A DNA stretch of 32,000 bases from Microcystis aeruginosa NIES-843 (GCF_000010625.1 NC_010296.1:3960001-3992000), one strand, 5' to 3'. Positions 3,876 through 19,558 are shown, counted from the stretch's first letter. A program made the numbers and translations. Notes: generated from the letters alone by a model not told the origin.

Positions 3876-3985
3876 ATCGATCGCTGAGGGTTTTGTTTCT
3901 TATTTTGACACTCCCTGCCGTAAAATGGACGGGGAACCTTAAACCCAAATTTTCGGTAAAGCGAGGAAAGAAAAATAGTTTTTAT

Positions 3986-4348: not shown

Positions 4349-4639
4349 CTAATTGAGATGGGAGTCTTTGGGAATAACATCCAAACCGAGGAGAACCTTT
4401 TGAGTATTGGACATATCGCCGATAATTCTTTGTAGGGGTGGGGGAAGTTGTTTGACTAAAGTAGGAGTTACGAGAATTTTATCCTGTTCCGCTAATTGGG
4501 GCTGTTCGAGAACATCAATTATTTCTACTGTATAAAGATCGGATAACTCCTCGCGACAGATACGAAAAATATTGGCGATCGCCCTCTGGGATTTACTTGA
4601 ATCGCCCATAATGTAGAGTTTGAGAAGATATTGACTCAT
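4349..4639 (-). CDS. KaiB-like thioredoxin-fold protein (KaiB paralog)
   Basis: 96-aa ORF. YLLKLYIMGDS...SQRAIANIFRICREEL...YTVEIIDVLEQPQLAEQDKILVTPTLVKQLPPPLQRIIGD matches the KaiB family pattern. The start overlaps the stop of the upstream receiver-like gene (4636-4639). Confidence 0.8.
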   Translation of the reverse strand: MSQYLLKLYIMGDSSKSQRAIANIFRICREELSDLYTVEIIDVLEQPQLAEQDKILVTPTLVKQLPPPLQRIIGDMSNTQKVLLGLDVIPKDSHLN

Positions 4640-5502
4640 GATTGCGTGTTATTGAACAGTTTAATGTTGCTGAGACCGATATAGTATTTACGATAGAAAG
4701 AGACGAGATAACCCATCAATTCCAAGACCATGAGACGACCTTCGCTAACGTAGGCCTGCGCTTTGGCCAGGGTGACATCCTGATTTTTTTGGCGTAGGGT
4801 GGTGGTATGAATATCCACCACATCGCGAGGACTAGCTTTTAAGAATCCTAACTTATCGGCCAAGCTTCGCAGTCGTTCCGATAGATTATGTTCCACTTTG
4901 TATGCTTGTTCTTCTAAAGCTAAGTCTAATAACTCTCCGTAATTTTGGACTAATTCTTGAAAAATATCGGGAATACTCTGCTTTATTGCCTCAGAACCGA
5001 ACATTTTCGCCGTGATGCTAGTTTGTACTCCCTTGATTAACTGTTCCAGTTCGCGAAATTCCTCTTCCTGTTGTTGATGTTTAAGATTGAGGATATATTG
5101 CTGACGTTCGATCGCCACACGAATTTGATAGACTAAAAGACTACTATCGATATTATTTAACTGAATATAACCGTCAGCACCCAGTTGAAAGGCTTTAACG
5201 ACTAATTTCTCATCATTGCTAGTAGTTTGAACCACTATCGGTATATCAGAGGCTAATTCTCTGGTTTTGACTAGAATATTTAAGCCGGGGGGGACAGAGA
5301 TTTCCAAGCTTAAGAGGATGAGATCAAATTTCTCCCCTGCTAGTTTTTCGGCAGTTTGCTGTAGATCCTGAGCTTGGGTGAGGGTAAAAGTCAACCCCCC
5401 GGCCAGGGAACATTGGGGGGCCTTTAACAGCAATCTCTGGATTAATTTAACAGTCGTCGGTTCATCCTCTATCAATAAAATCCTACAGAGCTCCCTAGTC
5501 AT
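4636..5502 (-). CDS. Pseudo-receiver domain protein with a C-terminal RsbU_N-like helical domain
   Basis: 288-aa ORF with a CheY-like N-terminus (ILLIEDEP...FDLILLSLEISVPPG...IVVQTTSND...GADGYIQL). The phospho-acceptor Asp position reads Ser and the conserved Lys-Pro is absent. The C-terminus (ASPRDVVDIHTTTLRQK...) resembles the RsbU N-terminal domain. Confidence 0.6.
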   Translation of the reverse strand: MTRELCRILLIEDEPTTVKLIQRLLLKAPQCSLAGGLTFTLTQAQDLQQTAEKLAGEKFDLILLSLEISVPPGLNILVKTRELASDIPIVVQTTSNDEKLVVKAFQLGADGYIQLNNIDSSLLVYQIRVAIERQQYILNLKHQQQEEEFRELEQLIKGVQTSITAKMFGSEAIKQSIPDIFQELVQNYGELLDLALEEQAYKVEHNLSERLRSLADKLGFLKASPRDVVDIHTTTLRQKNQDVTLAKAQAYVSEGRLMVLELMGYLVSFYRKYYIGLSNIKLFNNTQS

Positions 5503-5719: not shown

Positions 5720-5802
5720 TTCTACCGCTTAGGCGCTCGCTGGGGGTTTTCTGTGGCCCTAAGTCGTCAAGTGAAGCATCACTTAAAAATTGATGATCAA
5801 GT

Positions 5803-6102
5803 TTACTGCCATTGAGCGTGAATGCTTGGATGGAGTAAACGCTCAACTGGTTGACCGTTTTTTAAATGTTCTTCGACAATCTGATTGACATCCTCTGGTT
5901 TAACACGACAGTACCAGGTTTCCTCGGGAATAATTCTCACCGTGGGGCTAGTGCTGCACTGTCCTTGACAACCGCTGGTCATAACGATGACATCTTCTGG
6001 GAGAGCTGCCGTTTGCCAAGCTAAAAGAAGCTCCGACGCACCCTGTACCAAACAGGAAGAATGCTGACAGACCATCACAAATCGCTTTTGGGGATAAGAC
6101 AT
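5803..6102 (-). CDS. Thioredoxin-like [2Fe-2S] ferredoxin domain protein
   Basis: 99-aa ORF with a Cys pattern VCQHSSC...SGCQGQC plus TWYCRVKPEDVNQIVEEHL, typical of the (2Fe-2S) ferredoxin-like family. Confidence 0.7.
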   Translation of the reverse strand: MSYPQKRFVMVCQHSSCLVQGASELLLAWQTAALPEDVIVMTSGCQGQCSTSPTVRIIPEETWYCRVKPEDVNQIVEEHLKNGQPVERLLHPSIHAQWQ

Positions 6103-6207
6103 ATTATCTAAAAAGTTGCAAAATTAGATAGTTCCCTGGGTATATTCTTGGGAATGGCTTTGAGGAAGCATATATTATATTTTGCCCCGAATCCCCGATA
6201 CTGGCAA

Positions 6208-6402
6208 TAAGTAGTCGTGCAAAATTAATTTCCTAGTCGAGACAGGAGACTCCGAGACTCCGAGACTCCGAGACGGGGGACTCCGGGACAGCTATCAGGG
6301 ATCAGATTTGAATTTTTAGTTCACTGTTTACTGGTCACAGCAAAAAGCTTTTGGCTGACGGGTGACGGCTTGGATGTGTAATTAATTTTGCTTAGGTACT
6401 TA
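6208..6402 (+). mobile_element. MITE-like element, long copy of the 5611-5719 family
   Basis: Same terminal sequences as 5611-5719 in the same orientation. The internal part differs and contains GAGACTCC x3-4 (6246-6290). Confidence 0.6.
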
Positions 6403-6481
6403 CAAAAAAGGGGGCGAAAAATTAACCATCAATCTTTAAAATAGAATTCGGAGAAAAATTTAGTCAATCAAGAGGGTAAAA

Positions 6482-7183
6482 GTGGCATTCGCTAGTCATT
6501 GGATCATGTTAGGTTTATTACTGGGTTTTGCTGTTGCCCATAGCGGATTAGCCAGTTTACGAACGCGGGGAGAAGCTATCATCGGTGCGCGACTGTATCG
6601 GGTATTATTTGCCCTTGTGAGTATCCCTCTAGCCGTGATTTTAGTAGTTTATTTCTTCAATCATCGTTATGATGGTTTGCTTCTCTGGCAAGTACAGGGA
6701 GTAACCGGAGTAAAAACCCTAGTTTGGATACTTTCGGCCATTTCTTTTTTCTTTCTCTATCCTGCCACTTTTAACCTGCTGGAGATCGCCGCTATCCAAA
6801 AACCGCAGGTTCATCTCTACGAAACCGGCATCCTGCGCGTTACCCGTCATCCCCAGATGGTAGGACAGGTGATCTGGTGTATTGCTCACACCCTCTGGTT
6901 AGGGACAAGCTTTACCCTATTAACTTCCCTGGGTTTAATTGCTCATCATCTTTTTGCCGTCTGGCATGGCGATCGCCGGTTAGAAGACCGTTACGGAGAG
7001 GCATTTTTAAAGATCAAAGAACGCACCTCAGTGGTCCCCTTTTTAGCGATTATCGATGGTCGGCAAAGCCTGAAATGGCAAGAATTCCTTCGTCCTGCCT
7101 ATCTAGGAGTAACAGGGTTTATTTTACTCCTCTGGTGGGCGCATCCTTGGCTAATGCAAGCAACAAGTAAAATTTATTGGTGA
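6482..7183 (+). CDS. NnrU-family integral membrane protein
   Basis: 233-aa multi-pass ORF with a GTG start. AHSGLASLRTR...RVTRHPQMVGQVIWCIAHTLW resembles NnrU/Z-ISO-like proteins. Confidence 0.65.
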   Translation: MAFASHWIMLGLLLGFAVAHSGLASLRTRGEAIIGARLYRVLFALVSIPLAVILVVYFFNHRYDGLLLWQVQGVTGVKTLVWILSAISFFFLYPATFNLLEIAAIQKPQVHLYETGILRVTRHPQMVGQVIWCIAHTLWLGTSFTLLTSLGLIAHHLFAVWHGDRRLEDRYGEAFLKIKERTSVVPFLAIIDGRQSLKWQEFLRPAYLGVTGFILLLWWAHPWLMQATSKIYW

Positions 7184-7271
7184 TTTTGCTCCCAACCCCT
7201 TTCCTGTTGATCCCGATTGGTGTAGAATGGTTTATATATCAAAATAAAGTTTTCATAAAATACGTTTAGAC

Positions 7272-7613
7272 ATGATACTATCTGTCAACGAAAAGAGCTT
7301 CCCTAAGCTAGTTTTAGAGTCTTCTCGTCCGGTTCTCGTGTATTTTTGGGCGCCTTGGTGTGGTTTATGTCGTTTAATCCAACCCACCCTCTTGTCTTGG
7401 CAAAATGACTGTCAAGGTGCGATTCAATTAGTAGCTGTCAATGCCGATGATAATTTTAAATTAGCTAATAGTTTTCGTCTGCGTAGTCTGCCTACTTTAA
7501 TTCTCTTCGATCAAGGTGTTCCCGTTCATCGTCTGGAGGAAATTCACAGTCGCGAGGAATTGCAACAAACCCTGCGACTAATAGTCAAAAATCAAATCCC
7601 GCGTTCAGCTTAA
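7272..7613 (+). CDS. Thioredoxin-family protein with an atypical WCGLC active site
   Basis: 113-aa ORF. VLVYFWAPWCGLCRL...LPTLILF fits the thioredoxin fold, with Leu in place of the usual Pro in the CxxC motif. Confidence 0.8.
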   Translation: MILSVNEKSFPKLVLESSRPVLVYFWAPWCGLCRLIQPTLLSWQNDCQGAIQLVAVNADDNFKLANSFRLRSLPTLILFDQGVPVHRLEEIHSREELQQTLRLIVKNQIPRSA

Positions 7614-7878
7614 GGGAAAGATATCTTTTCTGATGGGTTCTGTGGTTAAAATGTATTCTAAGATACGGTAACGCTGGTGGGTGAGTGGAACGAACCACTC
7701 CAGACACAGAGAACACAAAGATTGATCGCTCTTATATCAATTAAACTTATCACACAAAGAATAAGAGAGCCTCTGATGGGACTGGCAGAGATAATATAAT
7801 AGGACAAAAAGTAGATAATCTCAATTCCTAACACTCCCATAGTTCCCCCAGTTCAAAAAATTAGGAGGCTTGCAAAAA

Positions 7879-8535
7879 ATGCCGATTGGTGTGGCTGAAT
7901 TTGTCGAAAATCAGGAAACTCGCTGTCCTGTGGTACTACTACTAGATACCTCCGGTTCAATGCAAGGGGAACCGATTAAGGCTCTCAATGATGGCATCAA
8001 AACCTTTCAGGAGGACGTGATGCGGGATATCCAAGCGACGTTGAGCGTAGAAACCGCCATTGTTACCTTTGGTAGGGGAGGGGTTAAAACCGTGCAAGAT
8101 TTTGTCGGGATTGATCAATTTACGCCACCGACTTTAACCGCAGGAGACTTAACCCCCATGGGAAAAGCGATTGAATTGGCCTTAGATTTAATCGAAGATC
8201 GTAAAGCGATTTATAGAAATCATGGTATCCAATACTATCGCCCCTGGATATTTTTAATTACTGATGGTGCGCCTACGGATCAATGGAATCTGGCGGCGCA
8301 ACGGGTAAAACAAGCCGAAGCAGAAAATCGGGTTTTATTTTTTTCTGTAGGTGTTCAGGGTGCTGATATGGAGAAGCTCAAACAGATTTCTAATAATCCC
8401 CCCGTGTTACTCAATGGTTTAGATTTTCGGGATTTATTTCAGTGGTTAAGTAACTCAATGAAACGAGTTTCTGGTGGTAAAATTGGAGCGGCGATCACTT
8501 TACCACCAGTGAATTGGGGACAAATTACCACCTAG
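7879..8535 (+). CDS. TerY-like von Willebrand factor A (vWA) domain protein
   Basis: MIDAS motif in VVLLLDTSGSMQG, plus ITDGAPTD. I prefer the ATG at 7879 (AGGAGG at 7863-7868) over the TTG at 7870 used by the ORF track. Confidence 0.8.
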   Translation: MPIGVAEFVENQETRCPVVLLLDTSGSMQGEPIKALNDGIKTFQEDVMRDIQATLSVETAIVTFGRGGVKTVQDFVGIDQFTPPTLTAGDLTPMGKAIELALDLIEDRKAIYRNHGIQYYRPWIFLITDGAPTDQWNLAAQRVKQAEAENRVLFFSVGVQGADMEKLKQISNNPPVLLNGLDFRDLFQWLSNSMKRVSGGKIGAAITLPPVNWGQITT

Positions 8536-8548
8536 AGGACAGTTAATT

Positions 8549-9316
8549 ATGTGGAGAACATTATGTCAGTCGGTGGTCGGTAGTTTTCATATCCAAGCGG
8601 GATTACCCTGTCAAGATTACGGTGCTTATCAAGTATTGGGTCAGGATGTTTTGATTGGAGCCGTGGCCGATGGGGCCGGTAGTGCCAAACATTCGGATTT
8701 GGGTGCGAAAATAACAGTTAAAGCAGCGCTGCAATTTTTAGAGGAAAATCTCAAAAAAACAGCATTAGCTGCCACTGGAACTGAAGCCGAATTAGAGGAA
8801 ATATTCCGGCGACTGTTGGCTTATGTTCAGCAAATTCTCCAAGAAAAAGCTGAAAAAGAACAGTTATATATTAATGATCTGGCGACAACTTTACTGGTTG
8901 TTTTGGTTACTTCAAAACGGTTAGCAGCGATGCAGATAGGAGATGGTTTTATTGTGTTCAAACCTCTGGGAGGAAATTATCAGTTATTGTTCCAGCCTGA
9001 CAAGGGGGAATACATCAATGAAACCACTTTTGTTACTTCTAGTAATGCTTTGGAGGATATGCAAATAAAAGTTTTAACCGAGCCAGTTGCCTTTATTTGT
9101 GTGGCGACGGATGGAGTGGAAAAGGTATCGATCGATTATAAAAATTGGCAGCCTTTTCCGCCTTTTTTTCAGCCATTAGAGGAATATTTGCAACAGACAG
9201 AAACGCCATTGCAAGAAGACCTCAAAGAATTTTTAATGCGGGAGGATTTAAATAAGTTAACAACCGATGATAAAACCTTACTCCTAGCTTTTTGTTCAGA
9301 AACCGGGTTTGTTTGA
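8549..9316 (+). CDS. PP2C-family (PP2C_2-like) protein phosphatase
   Basis: 255-aa ORF. HIQAGLPCQDYG...GAVADGAGSAKHSDLGA...TLLVVLV...MQIGDG...VATDGV matches the bacterial PP2C_2 pattern. It starts 13 nt after the vWA gene. Confidence 0.75.
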   Translation: MWRTLCQSVVGSFHIQAGLPCQDYGAYQVLGQDVLIGAVADGAGSAKHSDLGAKITVKAALQFLEENLKKTALAATGTEAELEEIFRRLLAYVQQILQEKAEKEQLYINDLATTLLVVLVTSKRLAAMQIGDGFIVFKPLGGNYQLLFQPDKGEYINETTFVTSSNALEDMQIKVLTEPVAFICVATDGVEKVSIDYKNWQPFPPFFQPLEEYLQQTETPLQEDLKEFLMREDLNKLTTDDKTLLLAFCSETGFV

Positions 9317-9331
9317 CAAACCCGGTTTCTG
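9297..9331. other. 15-bp-stem hairpin spanning the PP2C stop codon
   Basis: CAGAAACCGGGTTTG-TTTGA-CAAACCCGGTTTCTG. The TGA stop lies in the loop and no T-tract follows. Confidence 0.6.
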
Positions 9332-9337
9332 GATCTG

Positions 9338-9370
9338 GTTCAACCCAACCTATGATAAGACTATGGACTA
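9338..9370 (+). repeat. 33-nt direct repeat, copy 1, upstream of the MNT gene
   Basis: GTTCAACCCAACCTATGATAAGACTATGGACTA matches 10048-10080 at 29 of 33 positions by eye. Confidence 0.75.
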
Positions 9371-9378
9371 AGTAAATT

Positions 9379-9672
9379 ATGAAAATTGACGAATTACTCA
9401 AAAACAAACGAGAAAAAATTATTGCTATTGCGGCTAAACACGGCGCAAATAACGTGCGAATCTTTGGTTCTGTCGCACGGGGAGAAGCTGACGAAAAAAG
9501 CGATATTGATTTATTAATTGATTATTGTAGCGAACGTCGGAGTCCCTGGTTTCCCTTGCCGTTAATTCGAGAACTTGAAGCCTTGTTAGGCTGTAAAGTT
9601 GATATTGTTACCGAACAGGGACTTAAAGATAGAATCAGAGAGCGGGTACTAAAAGAAGCAATACCACTATGA
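9379..9672 (+). CDS. mntA: MNT-type nucleotidyltransferase antitoxin (type VII TA)
   Basis: 97-aa ORF with the minimal nucleotidyltransferase motif IFGSVARGEADEKSDIDLLI. It overlaps the downstream HepT gene by 4 nt. Confidence 0.85.
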   Translation: MKIDELLKNKREKIIAIAAKHGANNVRIFGSVARGEADEKSDIDLLIDYCSERRSPWFPLPLIRELEALLGCKVDIVTEQGLKDRIRERVLKEAIPL

Positions 9673-10004
9673 GAGATGATAGCGAACGCTTGCGGGATAT
9701 TTTAGAAGCAATTGAGCGTTTAGAAAAGTATGCTCGACAGGGAAAAACCCTGTTTGAACAACAAGAATTAATTCAAACTTGGATTGTCTATCATTTACAA
9801 ATTATTGGTGAAGCAGCTAGAGCAACTTCTCAAGAATTTAAAGCAAGATATCCCGAAGTTCCTTGGCGAGATGCCAGCGATCTAAGAAACTTAACTATTC
9901 ATGAATATTTTCGTATCAATCTAGAGATTATTTGGGATATTGTTGAAAATGACATTCCTCCTCTAAAACAACAAATCGAAGCTATTTTACAGGAATTGAT
10001 TTGA
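9669..10004 (+). CDS. hepT: HepT/DUF86 HEPN-domain toxin
   Basis: 111-aa ORF with the HEPN Rx4H motif in LRNLTIHEYF, paired with the MNT gene. Confidence 0.85.
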   Translation: MRDDSERLRDILEAIERLEKYARQGKTLFEQQELIQTWIVYHLQIIGEAARATSQEFKARYPEVPWRDASDLRNLTIHEYFRINLEIIWDIVENDIPPLKQQIEAILQELI

Positions 10005-10047
10005 CGAAACCCAACTCAATTATTAAAAAATGTTGGGTTTCACTATC

Positions 10048-10080
10048 GTTCAACCCAACCTAGGATAAGATCATTGACTA
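10048..10080 (+). repeat. 33-nt direct repeat, copy 2, upstream of the RHH/VapC pair
   Basis: GTTCAACCCAACCTAGGATAAGATCATTGACTA. A hairpin (GAAACCCAAC...GTTGGGTTTC, 10006-10041) lies 6 nt upstream, mirroring the arrangement at 9297-9370. Confidence 0.75.
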
Positions 10081-10129
10081 TCATTGCTATCATTTAAATG
10101 GTTGAGAATACAATACCACTCTCAAACGG

Positions 10130-10372
10130 ATGTCGTCTATGGCAGATTTAATCGTCCGCAATATCGATGAAGCCATCGTCAAAGCTCTCAAAAAGCGAGC
10201 CAGCCAACACGGGATCAGTGCCGAAGCCGAACACCGCCAAATCTTAGAAAAAGCCTTGCTGCAACCGCAACGAAAATCCCTAGCAGAGGTGCTACGCCAG
10301 ATTCCCAACGTTGGCAACGATTCAGACTTTGATCGCGTTCAAGATGACACAGCCAAACCAGTATTTGATTGA
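10130..10372 (+). CDS. FitA/VapB-like ribbon-helix-helix antitoxin
   Basis: 80-aa ORF. DLIVRNIDEAIVKALKKRASQHGISAEAEHRQIL is a typical RHH antitoxin N-terminus. It overlaps the PIN toxin gene. Confidence 0.75.
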   Translation: MSSMADLIVRNIDEAIVKALKKRASQHGISAEAEHRQILEKALLQPQRKSLAEVLRQIPNVGNDSDFDRVQDDTAKPVFD

Positions 10373-10790
10373 TACTAATATTATTAGCGAATTGCGTAAA
10401 AAAAGCACAGCCAACCCCGGTGTCCTGCAATTTTTCCAGCAAGCTGTCGAGCAATCCGCGCCGCTTTATCTTAGCGTTATCACTATTGGCGAACTGCGGC
10501 GAGGAGTTGACCTGATTCGACATCGTGGCGACCAACACCAAGCCGAACTGTTAGAAACCTGGTTGCAGACTGTTTTGGAAGACTACACCGACCATATTCT
10601 AGATTTCACAGCACTTGAAGCCCAAGTTTGGGGCAAATTGCGCGTTCCCAATCCTCATAATGCTCTAGATAAAATGATCGCCGCTACTGCACTCACCTAC
10701 GGCTTAATCCTAGTCACCCGTAATGTGAGTGACTTCGCTGGCACAGGAGTTCCTATAATCAATCCTTTTGAATCAGTGGTCAGTTCCTGA
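10344..10790 (+). CDS. vapC: VapC/FitB-like PIN-domain toxin
   Basis: I prefer the ATG at 10344 (MTQPNQYLIDTNIISELRK, where the first PIN acidic residue lies) over the track start at 10311. LILVTRNVSDF is near the C-terminus. Confidence 0.85.
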   Translation: MTQPNQYLIDTNIISELRKKSTANPGVLQFFQQAVEQSAPLYLSVITIGELRRGVDLIRHRGDQHQAELLETWLQTVLEDYTDHILDFTALEAQVWGKLRVPNPHNALDKMIAATALTYGLILVTRNVSDFAGTGVPIINPFESVVSS

Positions 10791-10791
10791 C

Positions 10792-12039
10792 GGGAGCATC
10801 TCACCTTTGCAATGAGCATAAATACTTAGTGGAAAAATAGGCTTTTCGAGGGTAATTCTTGTTTTAATTCTCCATGTACGCAGTCTTTAAAAGCCTCTAT
10901 TTCGTTCCAAGACACGATTAAGAGTGGCTTTTAGGCTAAGTATAATTACTTATCGCGTAAGTGAGATGCTCCCATGTCTCTATGAGCAATCCCCAATTAA
11001 TAAATTTAATAACTTGGGAGAGATAGAGGAGACAGTCAGAGATTTAATGATTCAGTATGTCAACCCAGAAATCGGTATTTTTTTGTCAAAACAAGCACAG
11101 GAGAAACAGCTGGTCGGACAAGAAAAGTGAAAAGTATTTTGGGGGAATTACCAATTACAGAAAAACAAGCGAAAAAATTAGAAATAAAGTCTCGGACTCA
11201 GATGAGTCCAATGTTAGAGAAGAACTGTTTGCTATTAAGTGGCGATGAATCCTACGAGAAATCGGCGCAGAAAATCAAATCATTGACAGGGATTGCTGTT
11301 TCTCACAGTACCCAACAACGCCTCGTACATCGCTATGCTTTTGAAGAATTACCGTCTAACCCAGAAGTGGAAGTGGAAGAAATGAGCCTAGATGGCGGTA
11401 AGGTACGACTAAGAACTGCCAAGGGAAAAGCCTTAATTTGGCGTGATTATAAAGCAGTGAGTTTTCATCAACTGGGGGTAGCGGCTTTTTTTCAAGATAA
11501 CTCAGCTTTATTAGATTTGGTTAATTCTCAAGTTTTGGCCAAGCCTTTAATTTGTTTAGGAGATGGACATGATGGTATCTGGAATTTATTTCGTGAGATA
11601 GGAGAGAAACAGGAAAGAATTGAAATATTGGATTGGTATCATTTAATCGAAAACCTCTATAAAGTTGGCGGGTCATTCCAGCGAATTGAGGAGGTAAAAT
11701 GTTTTCTCTGGAAGGGGGAAGTGGAGGCGGCTATCTCTTGTTGTGAAGGATGGTCAGAGCCGCAAGTTGAGAATTTTATTACTTATTTAAACAAGCATAA
11801 ACATCGAATTGTCAATTATGGTTATTTGCAGGCAGAGGGGATTTCCATTGGCTCTGGCTCCGTCGAATCAAAAATTAAACAAATTGCTCATCGTCTTAAA
11901 ATTACTGGTGCAAGTTGGGAATCTGGTAATGTACCGCAAGTCCTTCGTCATCGCTGTGCTTATCTAAATGGTTGCCTTTTTTAACTTTTTTATTGAGATC
12001 ATTAAGCATTTCTACTTATTGCAAAGGTGAGATGCTCCC
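10792..12039 (+). mobile_element. About 1.25-kb insertion sequence (ISKra4/ISNCY-like by recollection)
   Basis: Left end GGGAGCATCTCACCTTTGCAAT is inverted at the right end as ATTGCAAAGGTGAGATGCTCCC (12018-12039). It encloses transposase ORFs. Its first 182 bp (10792-10973) appear identical by eye to the solo MITE at 26929-27110. Confidence 0.75.
10966..11984 (+). CDS. DDE transposase encoded in two overlapping frames (-1 shift at 11127-11130)
   Basis: The N-terminal part (ATG 10966 to stop 11130) and the C-terminal 285-aa part (11127-11984; LGDGHDGIWNLF...ILDWYHLIENLYK) overlap at GTGA after GAAAAG. This is either a programmed frameshift or a decayed gene. Family assignment is tentative. 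Confidence 0.6.
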
Positions 12040-14312
12040 GTCAGGAAGCGAAAATCTACCACAATCCCCATAATGAAAGGGTTGATAAATTACAGTTAAT
12101 GGTGAGAAATCGTCCCAGTGATCCTAATGCTAATCTTAACCATATTTCCTTCGCTTGGCCCTATTCTATCTTAGAAGATAAACAGGGAAAAGTCGTTGGG
12201 TTTTTAATGCCAGAAGTGGTGGGTTCAGAAACATTATTAAAGCTTTGTACGCCCATAATGAGAAGAAAATACAAGTTAGAAACTAATTGGTATTTTCTTC
12301 ATGTAGTAGCGCGGAATATAGCCGCTATTATCCAAGCAATTCACCTTAAAGGTTATGTTTTGGGAGACATCAAGCTAGAAAATATCTTAGTGAATAATCG
12401 GGCGTTGCCTACAATTATTGATACAGATTCATTTCAAGTATCAGATCCGGATAGTAGTAAAATATATCGGTGTTTAGTTGGTTCAGAAGGATTTACGCCG
12501 GCGGAATTAATCGGAGTGAATATAGCAGATGTAGATCAAACAGAAGTGCATGATCGCTTTCGATTAGGAGTTGTTATTTATTATCTACTATTTAGCGGGC
12601 CGCCGTTTCGGGGATTGTGGCAAGGAGGAGGGGATTCCTTGGAACAGTCGGAACTAATTCGACGGGGACTCTGGCCTTTTTCTGGGGATAAATTGCTTGT
12701 ACCTAGTAATACAACAATCCCATTAAATATTTTACATCCCGACTTACACGCCTTATTTTTGCGCTGTTTCAATGAGGGACATAAATTCCCCCACAGACGA
12801 CCGACGGCTAAGGAATGGCGTGGTACTTTGGAAGCTGCACTAAAAGAGGTTGTACGCTGTGGCAAAATTGATAATCATTACTACAGTCGCAGTTACGGAA
12901 AGTGTTATTGGTGTGAGCGATCTAGTAATTTAAATCTTGATATTTTTCCGGGTAAAAGTATCGCTACTGTGACACCTACACCGTCACCTAAAGTAGCGCT
13001 AACTCCACTGACAAACTTTACCGAAAACCTACCCAAGGGAATAACACTGGAGATGGTGAACTTACCAGCAGGTCAATTTCTCATGGGATCTCCTGACAGT
13101 GATACCGATGCTAGGGATTTTGAAAAGCCTCAACACCAAGTTCAAGTCAACAGTTTTGCGATCGGTAAATATCCAGTGACTCAGGCACAATATCAAGCGG
13201 TAATGGGAACCAATCCCTCTCATTTTTCAAATAATCCCCAAAATCCGGTAGAAAAGGTTAGTTGGGATGATGCTCAAGCTTTTTGTCAGAAATTGAGTCA
13301 AATAACCGGGAAAACCTATCGCCTACCGACGGAAGCGGAATGGGAGTATGCTTGTCGTGCGGGGACTACTACTCGCTTTTATTTCGGTGATGATGCTAAT
13401 CAGTTAGGAGATTACGCTTGGTATTACGGACATTCTCAGCAGACAACTCATCCTGTGGGACAGAAAAGTCCCAATGCTTGGGGACTGTATGATATGAGTG
13501 GCAATCTTTGGGAGTGGTGCGAGGACAATTGGCACGATAACTATATCGGAGCGCCAAAAGATGGCAGTGCTTGGCTGACAAATGATAATGATTATCAAAT
13601 AGTGCGGGGCGGTTCTTGGTACGACTATCCGTCTTTCTGCCGTTCCGCTTTCCGCGGCTACTACTTCCGCCGCGACTTCATCAACGACGTCGGTTTTCGG
13701 GTGGTGTGCGTCCCCAATGTGACATCTACACAGTTACCTATCGCTACTGTGACATCTACACCGTTACCTAAAGTAGCGCCTCCAGCGCCCTCTTCGCCAC
13801 CACCTCCCCCAGCAAAGCTAACTCTATTTAGCGAAAACCTACCCAAGGGAATAACACTGGAAATGGTGAGCTTACCAGCAGGTCAATTTCTCATGGGATC
13901 TTCTGACAGTGATCCCGATGCTTACCAGAACGAAAAGCCTCCACACCAAGTTCAAGTAAACAGTTTTGCGATTGGCAAATATCCAGTTACTCAGGCACAA
14001 TATCAAGCGGTAATGGGAACCAATCCCTCTCGGTTTAAAAATTGGTTTAAAAATAATCCCCAAAATCCAGTAGAAAATGTTAGCTGGAATGATGCTCAAG
14101 CCTTTTGTCAGAAATTGAGTCAAATAACAGGAAAAACCTATCGTCTCCCCACAGAAGCGGAATGGGAATATGCCTGTCGTGCGGGGACAACTACTCGCTA
14201 TTATTTTGGTGATGATGCTAATCAGTTAGGAGATTATGCTTGGTATTACGGAAATTCTCAAGATACAACTCATCCTGTGGGCCAGAAAAAGCCCAATGCT
14301 TGGGGACTCTAT
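12027..14312 (+). pseudogene. Ser/Thr protein kinase-FGE-FGE fusion, 5'-truncated and IS-interrupted (upstream fragment)
   Basis: Kinase catalytic-loop and DFG-like motifs are present (HLKGYVLGDIKLENILV, IIDTDSF), but the Gly-loop and the start of the N-lobe are missing. The apparent GTG start lies inside the IS inverted repeat. Two FGE-sulfatase modules follow (RLPTEAEWEYACRAG twice). The reading frame is broken at 14312 by an IS701-type element. Confidence 0.8.
13605..13709 (+). other. DGR variable-region-like cassette F1 (internal FGE domain)
   Basis: Adenine-free invariant blocks CGGGGCGGTTCTTGG / TGCCGTTCCGCT / GGTTTTCGGGTGGTGTGC are interspersed with NNC/NNT codons. It aligns with the other three cassettes. 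Confidence 0.6.
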
Positions 14313-15675
14313 TGGGACTTAAACAAATTTCAAGCCCAAACAAAGCCTAAACTGGCTTTGTAAGCGGCAAACACATCCCGATTCTCGGTCAGCCACTCAA
14401 AGAAACGGAAAGACATCGCTGTCCGAAAAGCTTCCAAGGCTTCCACAAAAGTGTTTAAAGGTCGATTCGCCCACTGCCTTTGCAATCCCCCAGTTAACTG
14501 ATGCCACAGGATAAATGTATAGGCACAAAACACCAGGATAAAATGACGAAGTAAGCTTCGTTTATCCCTGACTTGATATTCCCTTAACCCTAACCATCCT
14601 TTGGCTTCTCGGTAGAATACTTCCACCCAATTTCTTTCGGTGTAAGTCCTCACTATCCACGAAGCTGTTACTGTATCTGCCTCAACTACATTGGTGATGA
14701 AATAGTCCACCTCTGTGGCTTTTTCCATTGAACTTGCATTCATGACGATCGCCAAGTTCCTTTCTCCTTCTAGTTGAGATATTTTCGCTCTGAATACCGC
14801 TACCCAAACCGTTTTTTCTTTATCTAGATTTAGGGTGATTTTCTCCCAATCCTTTTCTGATAGGCTTTTTGCTAGTTGCTCAAGCTGGATTGTTTCTTCC
14901 ACACCCCCTTCTTTTTCAATAATTACTTTTCGATTTTTTGCCAATCCTCCTAAGTATTTTAGCTTTCTTTCTTCCAGGGCTTTGAGAAAATTTGTGTTGT
15001 TGCCATAACCAGCATCTATTAAGACGATTTTCGGTCGATAGCCTCTGGTTAAGCTCCGGTCAATTAAATCTATCGCTATCTCTGGTTTCTTCTTAAATTC
15101 TTTGTCTTCTTTCCCCTCGGCTAAGGAACTAGCCGGTTGATAAATTTCAATGTCTAGGGGGACACTTTTTTTGCCGTCGTAGAGATGAGTAGTGACGGCG
15201 ACTATTCCGTTGTCTGTCTTGCCAATTTCTCCCAGGTACTGCCTGCCAACTCCGGCGGTCAGATTGCCACTTTTTCGATGTCCTGAGTCATCGACAATCA
15301 GGGAAAATCCTCGGGGGATTTGCGTCTGGCGGCATTGGTTCATCACTTGCAACCGACATTCATTCACCTGACGGTCTGACCAGGGAGATTCGGTCAAAAA
15401 GTGATGTAATCGGTTATAAACTACTCCGACGGCATTATTGGCCATTTGAGTGAGGTTTTTCCTCTCACTTTCCCCTAATAATCCTCCTAAATATTGTCTG
15501 AAGCCGTTTTTTTGCGCTTCGTTTTTGAAGCAATTGTCAAACCGCCGACACCATCGGTCAAAGCATGGGGGCATCGCGGCTGGGGTTGTCTCTTTCATCG
15601 CTGATCTTTCAACGTAAAGTGCTTACTCTTTAACGATTATACTCGATTTGATCTTTATTTGGCGTTTAAGTCCCA
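14313..15675 (-). mobile_element. IS701-family insertion sequence (1363 bp)
   Basis: Terminal inverted repeats TGGGACTTAAAC (14313-14324) and GTTTAAGTCCCA (15664-15675). Flanked by a direct CTAT duplication (14309-14312 and 15676-15679). Confidence 0.85.
14330..15598 (-). CDS. IS701-family DDE transposase
   Basis: 422-aa ORF filling the element. The N-terminal pattern (FDRWCRRFDNCF...QYLGGLL...ERKNLTQMA...LHHFLTESPW) is recalled from IS701/IS4-related transposases. Confidence 0.8.
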   Translation of the reverse strand: MKETTPAAMPPCFDRWCRRFDNCFKNEAQKNGFRQYLGGLLGESERKNLTQMANNAVGVVYNRLHHFLTESPWSDRQVNECRLQVMNQCRQTQIPRGFSLIVDDSGHRKSGNLTAGVGRQYLGEIGKTDNGIVAVTTHLYDGKKSVPLDIEIYQPASSLAEGKEDKEFKKKPEIAIDLIDRSLTRGYRPKIVLIDAGYGNNTNFLKALEERKLKYLGGLAKNRKVIIEKEGGVEETIQLEQLAKSLSEKDWEKITLNLDKEKTVWVAVFRAKISQLEGERNLAIVMNASSMEKATEVDYFITNVVEADTVTASWIVRTYTERNWVEVFYREAKGWLGLREYQVRDKRSLLRHFILVFCAYTFILWHQLTGGLQRQWANRPLNTFVEALEAFRTAMSFRFFEWLTENRDVFAAYKASLGFVWA

Positions 15676-15679
15676 CTAT

Positions 15680-15916
15680 GACATGAGTGGCAATGTTTGG
15701 GAGTGGTGCGAAGACAATTGGCACGATAACTATATCGGAGCGCCAAAGGATGGCAGTGCTTGGCTGACAAATGATAATGATTGTCAAATAATGCGGGGCG
15801 GTTCTTGGTCCTTCAATCCATCTTACTGCCGTTCCGCTTACCGCGACGAATTCTACCGCGACGGCTACGACGACATCGGTTTTCGGGTGGTGTGCGGTGT
15901 CGGGAGGACTCTGTAA
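15680..15916 (+). pseudogene. Kinase-FGE-FGE fusion, downstream fragment after the IS701 insertion
   Basis: Removing 14313-15679 joins ...NAWGLY to [18 protein letters not shown]... in frame. The fragment ends [12 protein letters not shown]-stop. Confidence 0.85.
15794..15895 (+). other. DGR variable-region-like cassette F2 (C-terminal FGE domain of the kinase)
   Basis: Same adenine-free scaffold as F1, F3 and F4, but one codon shorter. Followed by GGTGTCGGGAGGACTCTGTAA. Confidence 0.6.
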
Positions 15917-16082
15917 CCCTTATTTTCTTTTTACCCTTTTTACCCTTTTTTACTTTTTCCTGCCCTTAGGCGGGTCGATTTTTTTTTGAGATTTTCTATA
16001 TCTCGTAGGGTGCGTGTTTGCGGCAATCAATTCGGTCAAAAAACTAAAATTAACAATCCGCCGTAACGCACCACCTTTATCA

Positions 16083-16177
16083 TTCGGGTTGCGTGTGTCT
16101 CCCCAGGACTTTAACCCTCTGTTCTTTTGCTCTTTTGCCCTTTGTCTCCCGCCTAGCGACGGGTCGATTTTTTTGAG
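16083..16177 (+). pseudogene. Decayed copy of an FGE gene 3' end plus its 3' flank
   Basis: TTCGGGTTGCGTGTGTCTCCCCAGGACTTTAACCC...GGGTCGATTTTTTTGAG parallels TTCGGGTGGTGTGCGGTGTCGGGAGGACTCTGTAACCC...GGGTCGATTTTTTTTTGAG at 15882-15990. Confidence 0.45.
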
Positions 16178-16207
16178 AAAATTGAGGTAGTGTTAATTTT
16201 TAACTAC

Positions 16208-16529
16208 TTAGGGTTTGCTGAATAAATCTAATACTAAATCCGGTTATTAAAGACTGATTATTTATCCCCCCTTTTGCCTTTTGCATGAGTGCCTTTTGCC
16301 TGTCTTGATATGTAGCCTATACTCAACGGATTTAGTATAAAAACCTTGTTGGATAAGACTTTTAGACCTTTGGGAAATCAAAAAGTACCGGATATGGGAG
16401 TGAGCGGGGGGAAAATTCAGGTACTTTTTCCCTGAAAATTAGGTAATTGACCAGATGAAAATCGGTGAAACCCCACACCTCACACCCCACACCCTGCCCC
16501 CAGGAAAAACTTTTTGCCGCAAACCCTAA
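16208..16529. mobile_element. MITE-like element with TTAGGGTTTGC termini
   Basis: TTAGGGTTTGC (16208-16218) is inverted at 16519-16529. The interior carries a 30-nt exact copy of 4279-4308 (16233-16262) and inverted ACTAAATCCG motifs. The terminus family is shared with 21552-21715. Confidence 0.5.
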
Positions 16530-16808
16530 TTATGATTGAGAAAAAGGGAGAATAATATAGCGAATGACTGTTCCTAGTAAAGCTGTTCCCAAGATGCCGA
16601 TTAACGTCCAAATCTGGCCTTTCTGAGAGCCTTTTAATTCTTTTGTATCTTCTTTTACTCCTTCAATATCTTTTTCTAAACTATCGACTTTTTCCTCTAA
16701 TCTCGCCTGTACTATTTTAATATCCATAACATCTTTTTGCAGATTATCCAACTTCTGATTAATTGAACCTAAAATTTCTTTGAGATCCTGTTCAATAGTA
16801 ACTGACAT
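16530..16808 (-). CDS. Small coiled-coil protein with a C-terminal transmembrane anchor (XhlA-like architecture)
   Basis: 92-aa ORF with heptad-like charged repeats (LDNLQKDVMDIKIVQARLEEKVDSLEKDIEGVKEDTKELK) followed by the hydrophobic IWTLIGILGTALLGTVIRYIIL. Assigned on architecture only. Confidence 0.45.
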   Translation of the reverse strand: MSVTIEQDLKEILGSINQKLDNLQKDVMDIKIVQARLEEKVDSLEKDIEGVKEDTKELKGSQKGQIWTLIGILGTALLGTVIRYIILPFSQS

Positions 16809-16834
16809 CTAATGATTCTCCTAATAATGATAGT

Positions 16835-18068
16835 TAAGCTAAAACGCACTTAAACCACCTAAAATAGAAATAGTAATTTTAGAAAAATCCTACTTATGCC
16901 AGCAAAAGATTTCCTAGACTTAGAAGAAAAGAAAAACTTACAAAAAGCTCTTAAAGAAGAAGAAAGAGCAGAGGTTAGGGAAAGAATTTTAATGTTTCTC
17001 TTGCTAAACGACGGAAAAACTCAACGAGAAATAGCTGACTTTATTGGCTGTTCACTCAAAACGGTCGCCCCTTGGTGTGTTCACGGTGATCCTAACAATT
17101 TAGAAAGTCTAGAAGATGGGAGAAAAAATGGAAATCATAAAAAAGCCACAGAGGAATATATTAATTTACTATTAAAAATAGTTGATGAAGACCCGAAGGA
17201 ATTTGGATATGAATTCGGGAGATGGACAGCGGCAAGATTAGCAGAGCATCTAGAAAAGGAAACAAGAATTAAACTGAGTGGCTCGCAAGTGAGAAGAATA
17301 TTGAGAAGAAAAAAGTATGTGTATATCTGGGCGAAATATAGTCTAGAAGATAAGCAAGACAAGAAATTAAGAAAAGCATTTAAAGAAAAATTAGATGAAT
17401 ATTTAAGGTTGGCTAAAGAAAAGCCAGAGTCAATCCAGGTATGGTTTTGGGACGGGGCTTTCAAGGTGGCGACGCAGGTTCGCCACACAGCCCCTCATGA
17501 GTGTGGATTTAGTTTGAGAGTAATAAGAAGGAGAGCTTGGACAAAAAAAGGAAAGCGAAAAAAAGTGAATGGACAAAGAAAAAGAGGAAGGGTGAATGTG
17601 ATGGGAGCCTTAAGATATAATGACAAAAAACGAGTCTGTTTTATGAGCAAAAAAGGAAATTCAGAAACTTTCCATGAACAATTAAAGAAACTTCATGAAG
17701 AGATTCGTCAAGAATGGATAAACTTGGGAAATCTGCCCGAAGATTTTCGAGAAAAAAGACCGAAAATTATCATCATATTAGACAATGCTAGTTATCACAA
17801 AAAGAAAGATGTTATTGAGCAGGTGGAAAAAGAGTTGCCCAATATTAGGCTAGAGTTTTTACCAGCTTATAGTCCAGATTACAACCTAATAGAATTAGTG
17901 TGGCATTCCGCTAAAGAGTACATAGCTAATCGAGAATTTGAAAATAAAGAAGAACTGGAAAAAGTAGTCAATCAGCTTTTAAATGAAGGGGGATTGATTA
18001 TTAAATGGAGTAGAAAACTTAAAAATAAGGGTAATGCTGTCAATGTAACTTAAATGCGTAAAAGCTTA
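16835..18068 (+). mobile_element. IS630-family insertion sequence (boundaries approximate)
   Basis: Imperfect inverted ends TAAGCTAAAACGCACTTAAA and TTAAATGCGTAAAAGCTTA, about 15 of 20 matched, both at TA dinucleotides. They enclose the transposase ORF. Confidence 0.7.
16896..18053 (+). CDS. IS630-family (Tc1/mariner-like) DDE transposase carrying a 15-aa in-frame insertion
   Basis: 385-aa ORF with an HTH N-terminus and motifs ILDNASYHKK and LPAYSPDYNLIELVW. WFWD-[GAFKVATQVRHTAPH]-ECGFSL interrupts the usual DE.GF motif. Confidence 0.85.
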   Translation: MPAKDFLDLEEKKNLQKALKEEERAEVRERILMFLLLNDGKTQREIADFIGCSLKTVAPWCVHGDPNNLESLEDGRKNGNHKKATEEYINLLLKIVDEDPKEFGYEFGRWTAARLAEHLEKETRIKLSGSQVRRILRRKKYVYIWAKYSLEDKQDKKLRKAFKEKLDEYLRLAKEKPESIQVWFWDGAFKVATQVRHTAPHECGFSLRVIRRRAWTKKGKRKKVNGQRKRGRVNVMGALRYNDKKRVCFMSKKGNSETFHEQLKKLHEEIRQEWINLGNLPEDFREKRPKIIIILDNASYHKKKDVIEQVEKELPNIRLEFLPAYSPDYNLIELVWHSAKEYIANREFENKEELEKVVNQLLNEGGLIIKWSRKLKNKGNAVNVT

Positions 18069-18198
18069 TCAGCATTGTTGTCTATCTTATCTTAAGTGTT
18101 TGCCCAACCGAAGCGCCTCATTTTCCCTTGCTGCCTTCCCTCATTGTTGCCCTCCCCCTCCCATTATCTCCACTAATTTATGAGCCGATAATTCCTGA

Positions 18199-19167
18199 TT
18201 AAGCCAATCCTTTCTCAGCCAACCATTGAGGATTATATAAACGAGATTGATAACGGGACCCACCATCACAAAGAACAGTAACGATGGTGTGGCCCGGTCC
18301 CATTTGTTTAGCCAAAGCCACGGCAGCACCGACATTAATACCCACAGAACCCCCCATAAATAAACCATCTTTTTGTAATAGTTGATAAACAACTTTAATG
18401 GCAGTGGGATCATCAATTTGAATGGCATCATCTATGGGTGCGCCTTCCATATTAGCCGTAATACGACTATTACCAATCCCTTCGGTAATTGAACTACCTT
18501 CCAGGGTAATTGTCCCGGTTTTCACATAACTATATAAACCGCTACCCATCGGATCCGCCACCAGGCAGCGCACCTGCGGATTTTGGTCTTTTAAAAACAT
18601 CGCCACCCCCGCGTAGGTTCCCCCGGTTCCTGTGGCAGCCACCCAAGCATCAATTTTACCGTCGGTTTGTTCCCAGATTTCCCGGCCGGTGGTTTCGTAG
18701 TGAGCGCGACGATTAGCCAGATTATCGAATTGATTGGCCCAGATAGCATTTTCCATCTCACTGGCCAATCTCCCCGATAATTTAACGTAATTATTGGCAT
18801 CTCGGTAGGGAACGGCGGGAACAGTACGCACTTCTGCGCCAAGGGTTCTCAATAGGTCGATTTTCTCTTGGGATTGGGTATCGGGAATGATAATCAGGCA
18901 TTTATAACCTTTAGCATTGCAGATATGGGCCAAACCGATGCCAGTATTGCCGGCGGTTCCTTCGACAACGGTTCCCCCCGGTTGGAGAGTACCGGCTTTT
19001 TCCGCTTCTTGAATAATATATAAAGCGGCCCGATCCTTGACCGAACCACCGGGGTTAAGAAATTCGGCCTTACCGAGAATCTCGCAGCCGGTTTCCTCGC
19101 TAAAACTATTGAGACGAATTAGGGGAGTATTACCCACCGCATCGACGAAACCATGTTTAATATCCAT
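18199..19167 (-). CDS. PLP-dependent cysteine synthase / CBS-like family enzyme
   Basis: 322-aa ORF. NPGGSVKDRAALYII carries the PLP lysine, with TAGNTGIGLA and ATGTGGTYAGV loops. No CBS-pair domain is present. Confidence 0.8.
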   Translation of the reverse strand: MDIKHGFVDAVGNTPLIRLNSFSEETGCEILGKAEFLNPGGSVKDRAALYIIQEAEKAGTLQPGGTVVEGTAGNTGIGLAHICNAKGYKCLIIIPDTQSQEKIDLLRTLGAEVRTVPAVPYRDANNYVKLSGRLASEMENAIWANQFDNLANRRAHYETTGREIWEQTDGKIDAWVAATGTGGTYAGVAMFLKDQNPQVRCLVADPMGSGLYSYVKTGTITLEGSSITEGIGNSRITANMEGAPIDDAIQIDDPTAIKVVYQLLQKDGLFMGGSVGINVGAAVALAKQMGPGHTIVTVLCDGGSRYQSRLYNPQWLAEKGLA

Positions 19168-19191
19168 AATCTGTTATTTTTCGTGCTGTTC

Positions 19192-19395
19192 CTAGGCTGA
19201 GACGATTTTTTGTACCAAGGGATGACGCACCACATCGGCCCGCGATAGGTAAGAAAAAGCGATCCCTTCTACTGATTTTAGGATTTTTTGAGCGGCAATT
19301 AACCCCGATTCTTGTTGTTGCGGTAAATCGGTTTGGGTGACATCTCCAGTTACTACCATGCGCGAACCGAATCCCAAGGGAGTTAAGACCATCAA
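19192..19395 (-). pseudogene. phoH: phoH 3' remnant (C-terminal ~65 aa only)
   Basis: LTPLGFGSRMVVTGDVTQTDLP...SGL...VEGIAFSYLSRADVVRHPLVQKIVSA matches the PhoH C-terminus. Upstream in frame there is no Walker A or DEAQN region, and a stop lies about 20 codons up. Confidence 0.6.
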
Positions 19396-19558
19396 TGCGA
19401 TCGCACTTTCTCCACTGGGGAATTGAATCGTTGGCCAAATTCTACCACTTTAGCAAAATTGTTGTCTTAGCTGGAAATATTGATTAAATTGGAAGTTTTT
19501 TAGCTGTGATTCGTTACCTAACCTAATATAGTGGTGGCATTCTGTAAGGAGTCCCACC

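Follow-up and report, generated by a model that had tools for sequence, protein, structure and literature searches.

A YegL/PphC/YegI-type vWA, PP2C and kinase locus of Microcystis aeruginosa, its toxin–antitoxin cassettes and its insertion-interrupted kinase gene

Modules that combine a von Willebrand factor A (vWA) protein, a PP2C phosphatase and a protein kinase have been described in bacteria under more than one name. The kinase YegI and the phosphatase PphC (YegK) of Escherichia coli have been characterized biochemically (bioRxiv 10.1101/819920, 10.1101/303594); residue K39 and the DSD motif of YegI are essential, its autophosphorylation is second-order, and pphC is adjacent (bioRxiv 10.1101/819920). 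The TerY-P triad (Anantharaman, Iyer, Aravind 2012), as relayed in PMC11090510, groups a TerY-like vWA protein and a PP2C phosphatase with a kinase whose C-terminus carries a zinc ribbon. The same source treats the vWA–PP2C–kinase triad as a phospho-switch with links to defence systems, and TerY-P-like modules whose kinase has an oligonucleotide-binding (OB) fold are reported to act against phages (PMC11090510, PMC7699616; Gao et al. 2020). Kinases with a C-terminal C-type-lectin (CLec) domain, in turn, are reported to be the commonest targets of diversity-generating retroelements (DGRs) in cyanobacteria, with 'regulatory tuning' as the only account of their pathway context (Vallota-Eastman et al. 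2020, PMC7517822). Here, we describe a locus in a stretch of 32,000 nucleotides from Microcystis aeruginosa NIES-843 (NC_010296.1:3960001-3992000; hereafter the window, with all positions counted from its first nucleotide), in which vWA and PP2C genes are followed, beyond two toxin–antitoxin (TA) cassettes and an insertion sequence (IS), by the remnant of a kinase gene that carries two CLec-fold modules of the FGE type. We consider it very probable that the locus represents, in Microcystis, a phospho-signalling module of YegL/PphC/YegI type (TerY-P-like) that occurs across the cyanobacteria, and that its kinase has recently been knocked out. A first-pass annotation of the window had called the triad known but functionally uncharacterized; the first half of that statement stands, but the biochemistry of YegI and PphC and the anti-phage reports on TerY-P-like modules show the triad to be partly characterized.

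The triad and the cassettes in its spacer

The first two members of the triad are full-length genes on the plus strand. The TerY/YegL-like vWA gene (7879-8535, 218 aa) matches PF00092 (51 bits, residues 21-178), its translation contains the DTSGS motif of the metal-ion-dependent adhesion site (MIDAS) and a TDG motif, and the protein aligns over its full length with Microcystis orthologues at 94-96% identity. The PP2C_2 phosphatase gene (8549-9316, 255 aa) begins 14 bp past the vWA stop codon and matches PF13672 over profile positions 1-208 of 209 (215 bits). The first-pass annotation, which had set an intact vWA gene with its DTSGS MIDAS beside an intact PP2C gene, thus agrees with the profile matches and the translation. 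Ratios of non-synonymous to synonymous change (pN/pS) in comparisons that include the window are 0.25-0.37 for vWA and 0.30 for PP2C; as a test of whether the two genes are decaying as orphans of their kinase they are uninformative, as the range with the window (0.25-0.37) matches that among strains with an intact kinase 5' end (0.11-0.42).

To place these genes, 12 diverse kinases of the family represented in the window were aligned, the alignment was used to fetch 80 loci from reference genomes across Cyanobacteria, and vWA and PP2C neighbours were sought in those loci by tblastn with the window proteins. In 67 of the 80 loci both genes precede the kinase and share its strand, with a median of 43 bp from the end of the PP2C match to the start of the kinase match. 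Two of the other 13 loci have one of the genes only, ten are solo paralogues with unrelated upstream genes, and one (L006, JBIPMW010000299.1) offers too little upstream sequence. The triad proposed by the annotation is therefore genuine, and its own counter-case, in which vWA and PP2C never precede this kinase family, does not describe these loci. The 12 aligned members keep the motifs SGE(G/A)xVW, AKIYH, GDIKxxN, DTDSF, TPxE and C-x5-H-x8-C-x2-C; the zinc-ribbon Cys/His ligands are invariant in all 12 and align with those of YegI, and AKIYH and DTDSF are kept in the window remnant as well as in all 12 relatives. When the kinase domain was used as a protein query, the matches were Microcystis proteins at 94-95% identity and a very large cyanobacterial family at ~55-60% identity with varying C-termini (WD40, TPR, PDZ, FGE).

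The widest PP2C–kinase gaps in the set, 825 and 906 bp, belong to Microcystis loci. In the window, as the annotation had it, two TA cassettes on the plus strand occupy this spacer, and Pfam supports both. The first is an MNT/HepT cassette (9379-10004), with MNT at 9379-9672 (PF01909, PF18765) and HepT at 9669-10004 (PF01934, 94.6 bits); the genes overlap by 4 bp and carry GSVARGE..SDIDL (MNT) and RNLTIH (Rx4H; HepT). The second is the retained part (10067-10791) of an 801-bp RHH/PIN cassette of FitA/VapC type, with a FitA-like RHH gene (10130-10372; PF22513, 59 bits) that overlaps a PIN (vapC) gene (10344-10790; PF01850, 42 bits), both intact and the latter of full length relative to the IS-free Microcystis locus L001. 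The limits of the 801-bp segment follow from comparison of L001, where it spans 3823-4623, with L004 and L005, in which it is absent and MNT/HepT stands alone. L001 has the order NnrU-like, thioredoxin, vWA, PP2C, MNT, HepT, RHH, PIN, kinase, collinear with the window; it contains both cassettes, is free of IS elements and has kept its kinase 5' end intact. In L006, MNT is followed by an unrelated small open reading frame (ORF) in the place of HepT, by RHH and by a shortened PIN gene; although labelled as a Crocinitomicaceae metagenome-assembled genome, this contig holds sequence of Microcystis type (99% identity to Microcystis versions for MNT, 89% for the kinase) and has probably been mis-binned.

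Ahead of each cassette stands a separate copy of a leader motif. Copy 1 (GTTCAACCCAACCTAnGATAAGA..GACTA, 9338-9370, plus strand; direct repeat D9) lies upstream of MNT, and copy 2 (10048-10080) is part of a hairpin-bearing segment at 10006-10080 (plus strand; fold −15.7 kcal/mol, z = −2.8). The copies are 88% identical, and the leader 15-mer has just two occurrences in the window, where 0.03 would be expected; the repeat reaches ~75 bp in L005 and L006, and in L004 and L005 a related form stands just 5' of the kinase start. Between PP2C and the cassettes lies a 19-bp perfect hairpin (9294-9334, plus strand; repeat search and RNA fold) that overlaps the PP2C stop codon and is very stable (−30.7 kcal/mol, z = −6.1; 0/200 shuffles equally stable); it may act as an insulator, a stability element or a repeat element.

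The spacer between PP2C and kinase is thus a hotspot of cassette turnover in Microcystis, for which the entry of MNT/HepT first and RHH/PIN second is the most parsimonious order. The cassettes parted the triad genes and did not inactivate them, because the kinase 5' end has stayed intact in L001, L004 and L005. In the window the vWA gene, the PP2C gene and both TA pairs are all still intact. The stepwise destruction by TA and IS insertion put forward in the annotation therefore holds in part: intermediates exist and IS elements destroy the kinase, but the TA cassettes are intergenic and coexist with intact kinase 5' ends.

An alternative is that the cassettes, with a HEPN RNase (HepT) and MNT, have been co-opted as working parts of the triad, for example as an effector arm under the control of kinase and phosphatase. 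MNT, alone or with HepT, is found at this position in 5/5 Microcystis loci (the window, L001, L004, L005 and L006), its pN/pS of 0-0.14 indicates strong constraint, it matches the PADLOC defence candidate PDC-S09 (E = 1.4e-39), and CoCoNuT systems show tight linkage of TerY-P triads with HEPN-domain proteins (PMC11090510). However, no MNT/HepT-type genes stand between PP2C and kinase in the non-Microcystis triad loci, the cassette content varies between strains (RHH/PIN present or absent; another ORF for HepT and a shortened PIN gene in L006), the separate repeated leaders suggest modular mobility, and the very stable hairpin lies between PP2C and the cassettes. We regard co-option as unlikely, and continue with the cassettes as mobile occupants of the spacer.

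Loss of the kinase 5' end and interruption of its lectin-fold region

Directly after the vapC gene lies a defective IS, probably of the ISKra4 family (10792-12039, plus strand, 1248 bp), exactly where the annotation had drawn a 1.25-kb IS. A repeat search gave terminal inverted repeats of 40 nt (10792-10831 and 12000-12039). The transposase matches NF033572 (264 bits; cutoff 205) over profile positions 75-422 only, being frameshifted and shortened, and is read in two pieces (10966-11128 and 11127-11984). An internal third copy of the IS end (10929-10973) precedes and overlaps the likely transposase start, ATG 10966. The left 182 bp of the copy correspond to a complete miniature inverted-repeat transposable element (MITE) and are identical at 182/182 positions to a MITE at 26929-27110, which is flanked on both sides by the 9-bp duplication CAGCGCGAC (26920-26928, 27111-27119).

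Comparison with the IS-free L001 defines what the element replaced. By BLAST, L001 158-4547 matches window 6402-10791 at 97.7% identity and L001 4765-5726 matches window 12047-13008 at 96.4% identity; the window lacks L001 4548-4765, a segment of 218 bp that comprises 107 of the 108 bp of the vapC–kinase spacer and kinase codons 1-37. In its place stand the IS and an 8-bp filler, GTCAGGAA (12040-12047, plus strand), which is absent from L001, is the exact reverse complement of 10784-10791 and lengthens the terminal inverted repeat from 40 to 48 nt (10784-10831, 12000-12047). The left-hand 8 bp, TTCCTGAC (10784-10791), and with them the vapC stop codon TGA (10788-10790), are native, as they are the same in L001; VapC is intact because its stop codon is native. 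An IS that would span 10784-12047 and supply that stop codon was rejected, given that L001 has TTCCTGAC without an IS and that the MITE ends in GGGAGC with a clean 9-bp duplication. Reading of both flanks revealed no direct target duplication at the kinase copy. Since the IS family makes a 9-bp duplication at the MITE and none is present here, the ISKra4 event is best described as a 218-bp replacement and not as a simple insertion. It would have begun with an ordinary ISKra4 insertion at the vapC stop codon, followed by a deletion beside the IS: a nascent strand would have folded back (snap-back) onto the complementary terminal repeat, taken 8 nt of the left flank as its template and restarted 218 bp downstream. 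Replicative-inversion models for the filler were rejected because the kinase has kept its ancestral orientation. No other copies of the ISKra4 or of the IS701 element described below were found in the fetched loci.

Native kinase sequence restarts at 12048, with codon A38 (...L-AKIYH), and the kinase-domain remnant (plus strand) runs to 12914, as delimited by Pfam Pkinase, the N-termini of orthologues, the BLAST junctions and the alignment to YegI. Intact Microcystis orthologues begin MSLTYRCQLQNRLITLTQE(M/L)A(D/N)SGEAKVWHTNFNGYL-AKIYHNPHNERV; codons 1-37, absent here, encode MSLTYRCQLQNRLITLTQEMADSGEAKVWHTNFNGYL, and the lost 5' end was searched for elsewhere in the window and not found. The remnant has neither start codon nor P-loop, and retains the β3 lysine (AKIYH), GDIKLEN (12363-12383), DTDSF (12420-12434), TPAE and, after the kinase domain, a zinc ribbon of the form C-x5-H-x8-C-x2-C (12858-12914) that is predicted to bind metal. 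The annotation had described a kinase without its Gly-loop and the start of its N-lobe, up to the β3 lysine strand, and had proposed intact orthologues as the means to find the missing end; both the loss and the remedy proved correct, the orthologues and the L001 junctions placing the loss at codons 1-37. Its kinase start at 12040 needs amendment: the kinase does follow the IS, but 12040-12047 is filler.

Downstream of the remnant, two tandem FGE modules (PF03781), which Pfam confirms as annotated, follow on the plus strand. Module 1 spans 13029-13710. Module 2 is split, as the annotation had stated for the kinase, by an IS701-family element (14313-15675, minus strand, 1363 bp; NF033540, 344 bits) with its DDE transposase at 14330-15598 on the minus strand, 12-bp perfect inverted repeats TGGGACTTAAAC as its ends and the target duplication CTAT at 14309-14312 and 15676-15679. 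The 5' part of the module (13839-14312), whose direct repeats with module 1 (D1, D3 and D4) show 90-95% identity, ends in ...NAWGLY, and its 3' part (15680-15916; PF03781, 63.9 bits) continues in frame once the element is removed: excision of the IS701 element and one CTAT copy joins ...NAWGLY to DMSGNVWEW.... Virtual excision leaves 833 codons in an open frame between A38 and the stop at 15916, so the ancestral protein had ~870 aa and comprised an atypical Hanks-type kinase domain, a CHCC zinc ribbon, a Pro/Thr-rich linker and two CLec-fold (FGE) modules.

The number of FGE modules per kinase varies between strains, with one in L002 (1-1534) and L004 (9998-12088) and two in L006 (2358-3482) and the window. 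In the orthologues P0001 and P0004 the linker past the zinc ribbon contains a hydrophobic, transmembrane-looking stretch (…RRKVLITFGLFTVGTVASNIFAQLF…) that is absent from the window allele (compared over L001 ~5726-6130 and window 13008 onward); the lectin modules may thus lie outside the cytoplasm in some strains and inside it in others.

The kinase gene of the window, its sensor interrupted and its start codon and P-loop lost, is predicted to be dead; the remnant keeps the lysine but should be inactive, having lost the P-loop strand together with the start codon and the spacer before it. The remnant has no internal stop and a pN/pS of 0.21-0.24, within the strain range, and because no further decay is seen the inactivation is recent. 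The genome of Microcystis is rich in IS elements, and recent knock-outs by them are ordinary there.

It could be argued that the remnant is not a pseudogene and that expression from GTG 12027, inside the IS at its right-hand end, yields a scaffold or decoy protein that is N-truncated and catalytically dead. An ORF of 778 aa without internal stop is open from 12027 to 14363, the remnant shows no excess of non-synonymous change, and related conflict systems commonly contain kinase domains that are inactive (PMC7159879). Against this, the ORF enters the IS701 element, so that the end of FGE module 2 is lost; the pN/pS is equally expected of a very recent pseudogene; YegI without K39 function is inactive, and here the whole P-loop strand is missing. 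A consensus scan revealed no promoter-like site near 12000, which is weak evidence, as the promoter and terminator scan is uninformative (fewer promoter-like sites than in shuffled sequence). We hold an expressed remnant to be improbable, and less probable than co-option of the cassettes. Far weaker still is the proposal that the kinase never stood beside vWA, PP2C and the TA genes and that recombination between ISKra4 copies joined unrelated loci: the missing target duplication, the unrelated flanks and the second, 100% identical IS end in the window (the MITE) would suit it, but in the IS-free L001 the gene order is unchanged and collinearity with the window holds to the left and to the right of the IS (96-98% identity), with only 218 bp replaced, which rules it out for practical purposes.

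Taken together, the comparisons between strains show the following history for the knocked-out triad. Ancestrally, PP2C was followed directly by the kinase; MNT/HepT then entered the spacer in Microcystis, and the 801-bp RHH/PIN cassette next, each with its own leader copy. In the strain of the window the defective ISKra4 element arrived at the vapC stop codon, with an IS-adjacent event taking 218 bp, and the IS701 element entered FGE module 2, these two events in either order. The strain series (no TA, one TA, two TAs, IS knock-out) amounts to a natural allelic series in a bloom-former.

Variable repeats of the lectin-fold modules

Four FGE domains in the window end in 110-130 nt with a common invariant scaffold broken by variable NNC-type codons. 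The four are kinase modules 1 and 2, a stand-alone 265-aa FGE/CLec protein (20752-21549, minus strand) and a 961-aa protein (22855-25740, minus strand) with an N-terminal SAV_2336 domain and a C-terminal FGE domain. A template repeat (TR) was predicted by putting adenine at the variable positions of these variable repeats (VRs), and a metagenome collection was scanned with it. The predicted TR was matched exactly in four metagenome contigs (L084-L087), which do not come from the genome of the window. In L084 the order is target, Avd-like ORF, 352-aa reverse transcriptase (RT; YVDD motif) and TR directly downstream of the RT, the target being a CHAT/NB-ARC/NACHT protein with a terminal FGE domain. 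L084 and L087 contain full RT and Avd genes, and in the three contigs other than L084 the TR lies just 3' of RT coding sequence as far as the contigs reach.

Differences between the repeats and this TR are confined almost entirely to template adenines. VR1 of the kinase (13604-13710, in module 1) is changed at 21/31 adenine positions and at 0/75 others (Fisher p = 5.6e-15), and VR2 (15793-15896, plus strand, in module 2) at 18/31 and 1/72, with one 3-nt deletion (Fisher p = 6.1e-11). The corresponding values are 19/31 and 1/75 for the 265-aa gene (VR 20752-20878) and 15/31 and 0/75 for the 961-aa gene (VR 22855-22981), so that ~9.4 kb (13604-22981) hold four VRs for one TR. The PF03781 matches end at GFRVVC in both kinase modules, the VR being the C-terminal end of the CLec/FGE domain. 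VR2 is followed, up to the stop codon, by a tail that resembles an initiation-of-mutagenic-homing (IMH) site; this tail, GGTG..GGGAGGACT.TGTAA, is common to VR2 and the two other window VRs and is IMH-like by its sequence. The kinase VR of L002 has the same scaffold with other adenine substitutions than the window. By these measures both FGE modules of the kinase carry genuine DGR variable repeats, and the modules that the annotation had called DGR-like show more than a resemblance, the VR/TR changes being adenine-specific.

In L004 the VR is longer, with an 18-nt insertion relative to the TR. In non-Microcystis cyanobacteria, FGE modules follow the triad kinase in L003 (6093-10090) and L043 (10001-12246), the latter, from Pleurocapsa, with a VR-like C-terminus on a different scaffold; DGR-type sensors may occur on triad kinases beyond Microcystis. 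Hairpins 3' of VRs are reported to aid DGR homing. Downstream of the kinase stop codon, 15958-15994 and 16147-16183 each form a short GC hairpin with a T-run behind it and are 73% identical to one another; they look like terminators, an aid to homing being the alternative.

In the intact system, the hypervariable lectin modules would bind a ligand, and binding would control the kinase through oligomerization and autophosphorylation, as measured for YegI; the kinase would phosphorylate the vWA protein and/or other targets, and the PP2C phosphatase would reset the switch. It is conceivable, though we think it doubtful, that the triad forms a programmable immune or surveillance receptor, in which a DGR-made ligand repertoire (e.g. 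for phage or grazer molecules) switches kinase, PP2C and vWA, HepT, which MNT restrains, is recruited as effector in Microcystis and frequent IS knock-outs reflect the cost of the system.

Several points weigh against the reading of the locus as a YegL/PphC/YegI-type module with a DGR-diversified, recently inactivated kinase, in addition to the expressed remnant considered above. The mechanism behind the 218-bp loss and the 8-bp inverted filler is one that we infer from the junction sequence. Phosphorylation of the vWA protein would rest on gene linkage and on a hypothesis cited in PMC11090510. The PADLOC TerY model gives no match to the window vWA at E ≤ 1, which leaves a defence function without profile support. 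RT, Avd and TR were sought in the window and none was found, the TR and RT coming from other contigs, and VR1 lacks an IMH-like 3' end (TR homology ends after GTGTGCG), yet it differs between strains (window and L002). The last two points would suit ordinary divergence of paralogues under diversifying selection in place of DGR retrohoming, but we give that explanation next to no credence in view of the concentration of changes at TR adenines in both kinase repeats, the exact recovery, directly 3' of an RT coding sequence, of a TR predicted from the VRs, and the same invariant scaffold in four otherwise unrelated genes or modules.

Neighbouring genes and comparison with known systems

The genes of the 961-aa protein (22855-25740), an AAA ATPase (25737-26696) and a VMAP protein (27062-28399; VMAP-M9, 293 bits, plus VMAP-C), all on the minus strand, belong to a vWA-MoxR-type (VMAP) conflict system at 22855-28399, and the 961-aa protein and the stand-alone 265-aa protein both have their C-terminal VRs for the same TR as the kinase. 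The MITE at 26929-27110 lies within the 3' end of the VMAP gene, to which it provides the last codons and the stop codon, and this gene may be damaged by it too. Elsewhere in the window are an IS630-family transposase gene (16896-18053; NF033545, 294 bits) and an IS607-type pair (30063-31866), with a serine recombinase at 31273-31866 and a TnpB/OrfB gene apparently split into 30063-30824 and 30876-31313. On the minus strand at 4349-5502 a KaiB-domain gene (PF07689, 99.7 bits) lies directly 3' of the gene for a 288-aa receiver-domain protein; no kaiC follows the KaiB-domain gene on that strand, and the ORF 4636-5502 was rejected as KaiA, Pfam supporting a receiver domain only.

The E. coli YegL/PphC (YegK)/YegI set consists of the same three proteins in the same order as the window triad. 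By BLASTP, the window vWA is 54% identical to YegL (E = 5e-68), the window PP2C 33% identical to PphC (E = 3e-39) and the orthologue kinase P0001 32% identical to YegI (E = 1e-49), the last alignment spanning the N-terminal strand, AKIYH and C..H..C.WC. The window-family kinases and YegI have in common an atypical P-loop, the AKIYH strand, DSD/DTDSF in place of DFG and the C..H..C.WC zinc ribbon. In E. coli K-12, too, the triad is broken up: yegJ lies between pphC and yegI and is read from the opposite strand (also bioRxiv 10.1101/819920). The YegI C-terminus, however, is a membrane-associated region with no FGE/CLec domain and no DGR, and the E. coli operon has no internal TA cassettes. In the K-12 locus (L088, 2146000-2156000) the triad adjoins the type I TA loci ibsA/sibA and ibsB/sibB, a parallel to the association of TA genes and triad in Microcystis.

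Set against the TerY-P triad in the form relayed by PMC11090510, the locus has a stand-alone MIDAS vWA protein, an adjoining PP2C gene, a zinc-ribbon kinase and the three-gene linkage, and departs from it in the window in that not all genes are intact, the kinase lacking codons 1-37 and being split by the IS701 element. TerY-P-like triads and the window also resemble one another in their setting among mobile and defence-type genes. Validated TerY-P-like defence kinases carry an OB-fold, whereas the window kinase carries two DGR-diversified CLec modules; C-terminal to the kinase, Pfam gave no OB-fold and two FGE-sulfatase domains instead. Membership in TerY-P as defined by PADLOC was rejected for want of a match. 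Because the PADLOC TerY model misses the window vWA and scores E. coli YegL itself at only E = 0.032 (PDLC02224), we file the locus with the YegLKI branch and not with the PADLOC-TerY branch, its defence activity being putative.

VMAP/vWA-MoxR conflict systems (Kaur et al. 2020, PMC7159879) have the same kind of FGS/CLec hypervariable C-terminal module, but their core differs, with a MoxR AAA ATPase, a VMAP protein and a vWA-type component against kinase, PP2C and stand-alone vWA here. The kinase–CLec proteins of PMC7517822 resemble the window kinase in having an N-terminal kinase and a C-terminal VR, in lying remote from RT and TR, and in that one TR serves several targets. By term matches, that paper has 'phosphatase' once and VWA only as the VWA-CoxE repeat domain in variable proteins, and vWA or PP2C neighbours of such kinases do not appear to be reported in it. 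The literatures on DGR-target kinases and on the vWA–PP2C–kinase triad, apparently unconnected before, thus meet at this locus. If the DGR-target kinases of Microcystis, and perhaps those of further cyanobacteria, are indeed the kinase arm of the triad, the hypervariable receptor would gain an identifiable downstream module (phosphatase and vWA), and the triad a candidate input in the form of a diversifiable ligand-binding domain. Relative to the proteins of PMC7517822, the window kinase is distinguished as the third member of a triad, by its two tandem VR modules and as an inactivated copy; the components are all of known kinds, and the joining of a YegLKI/TerY-P-type triad to a DGR-diversified kinase sensor appears to be a new combination.

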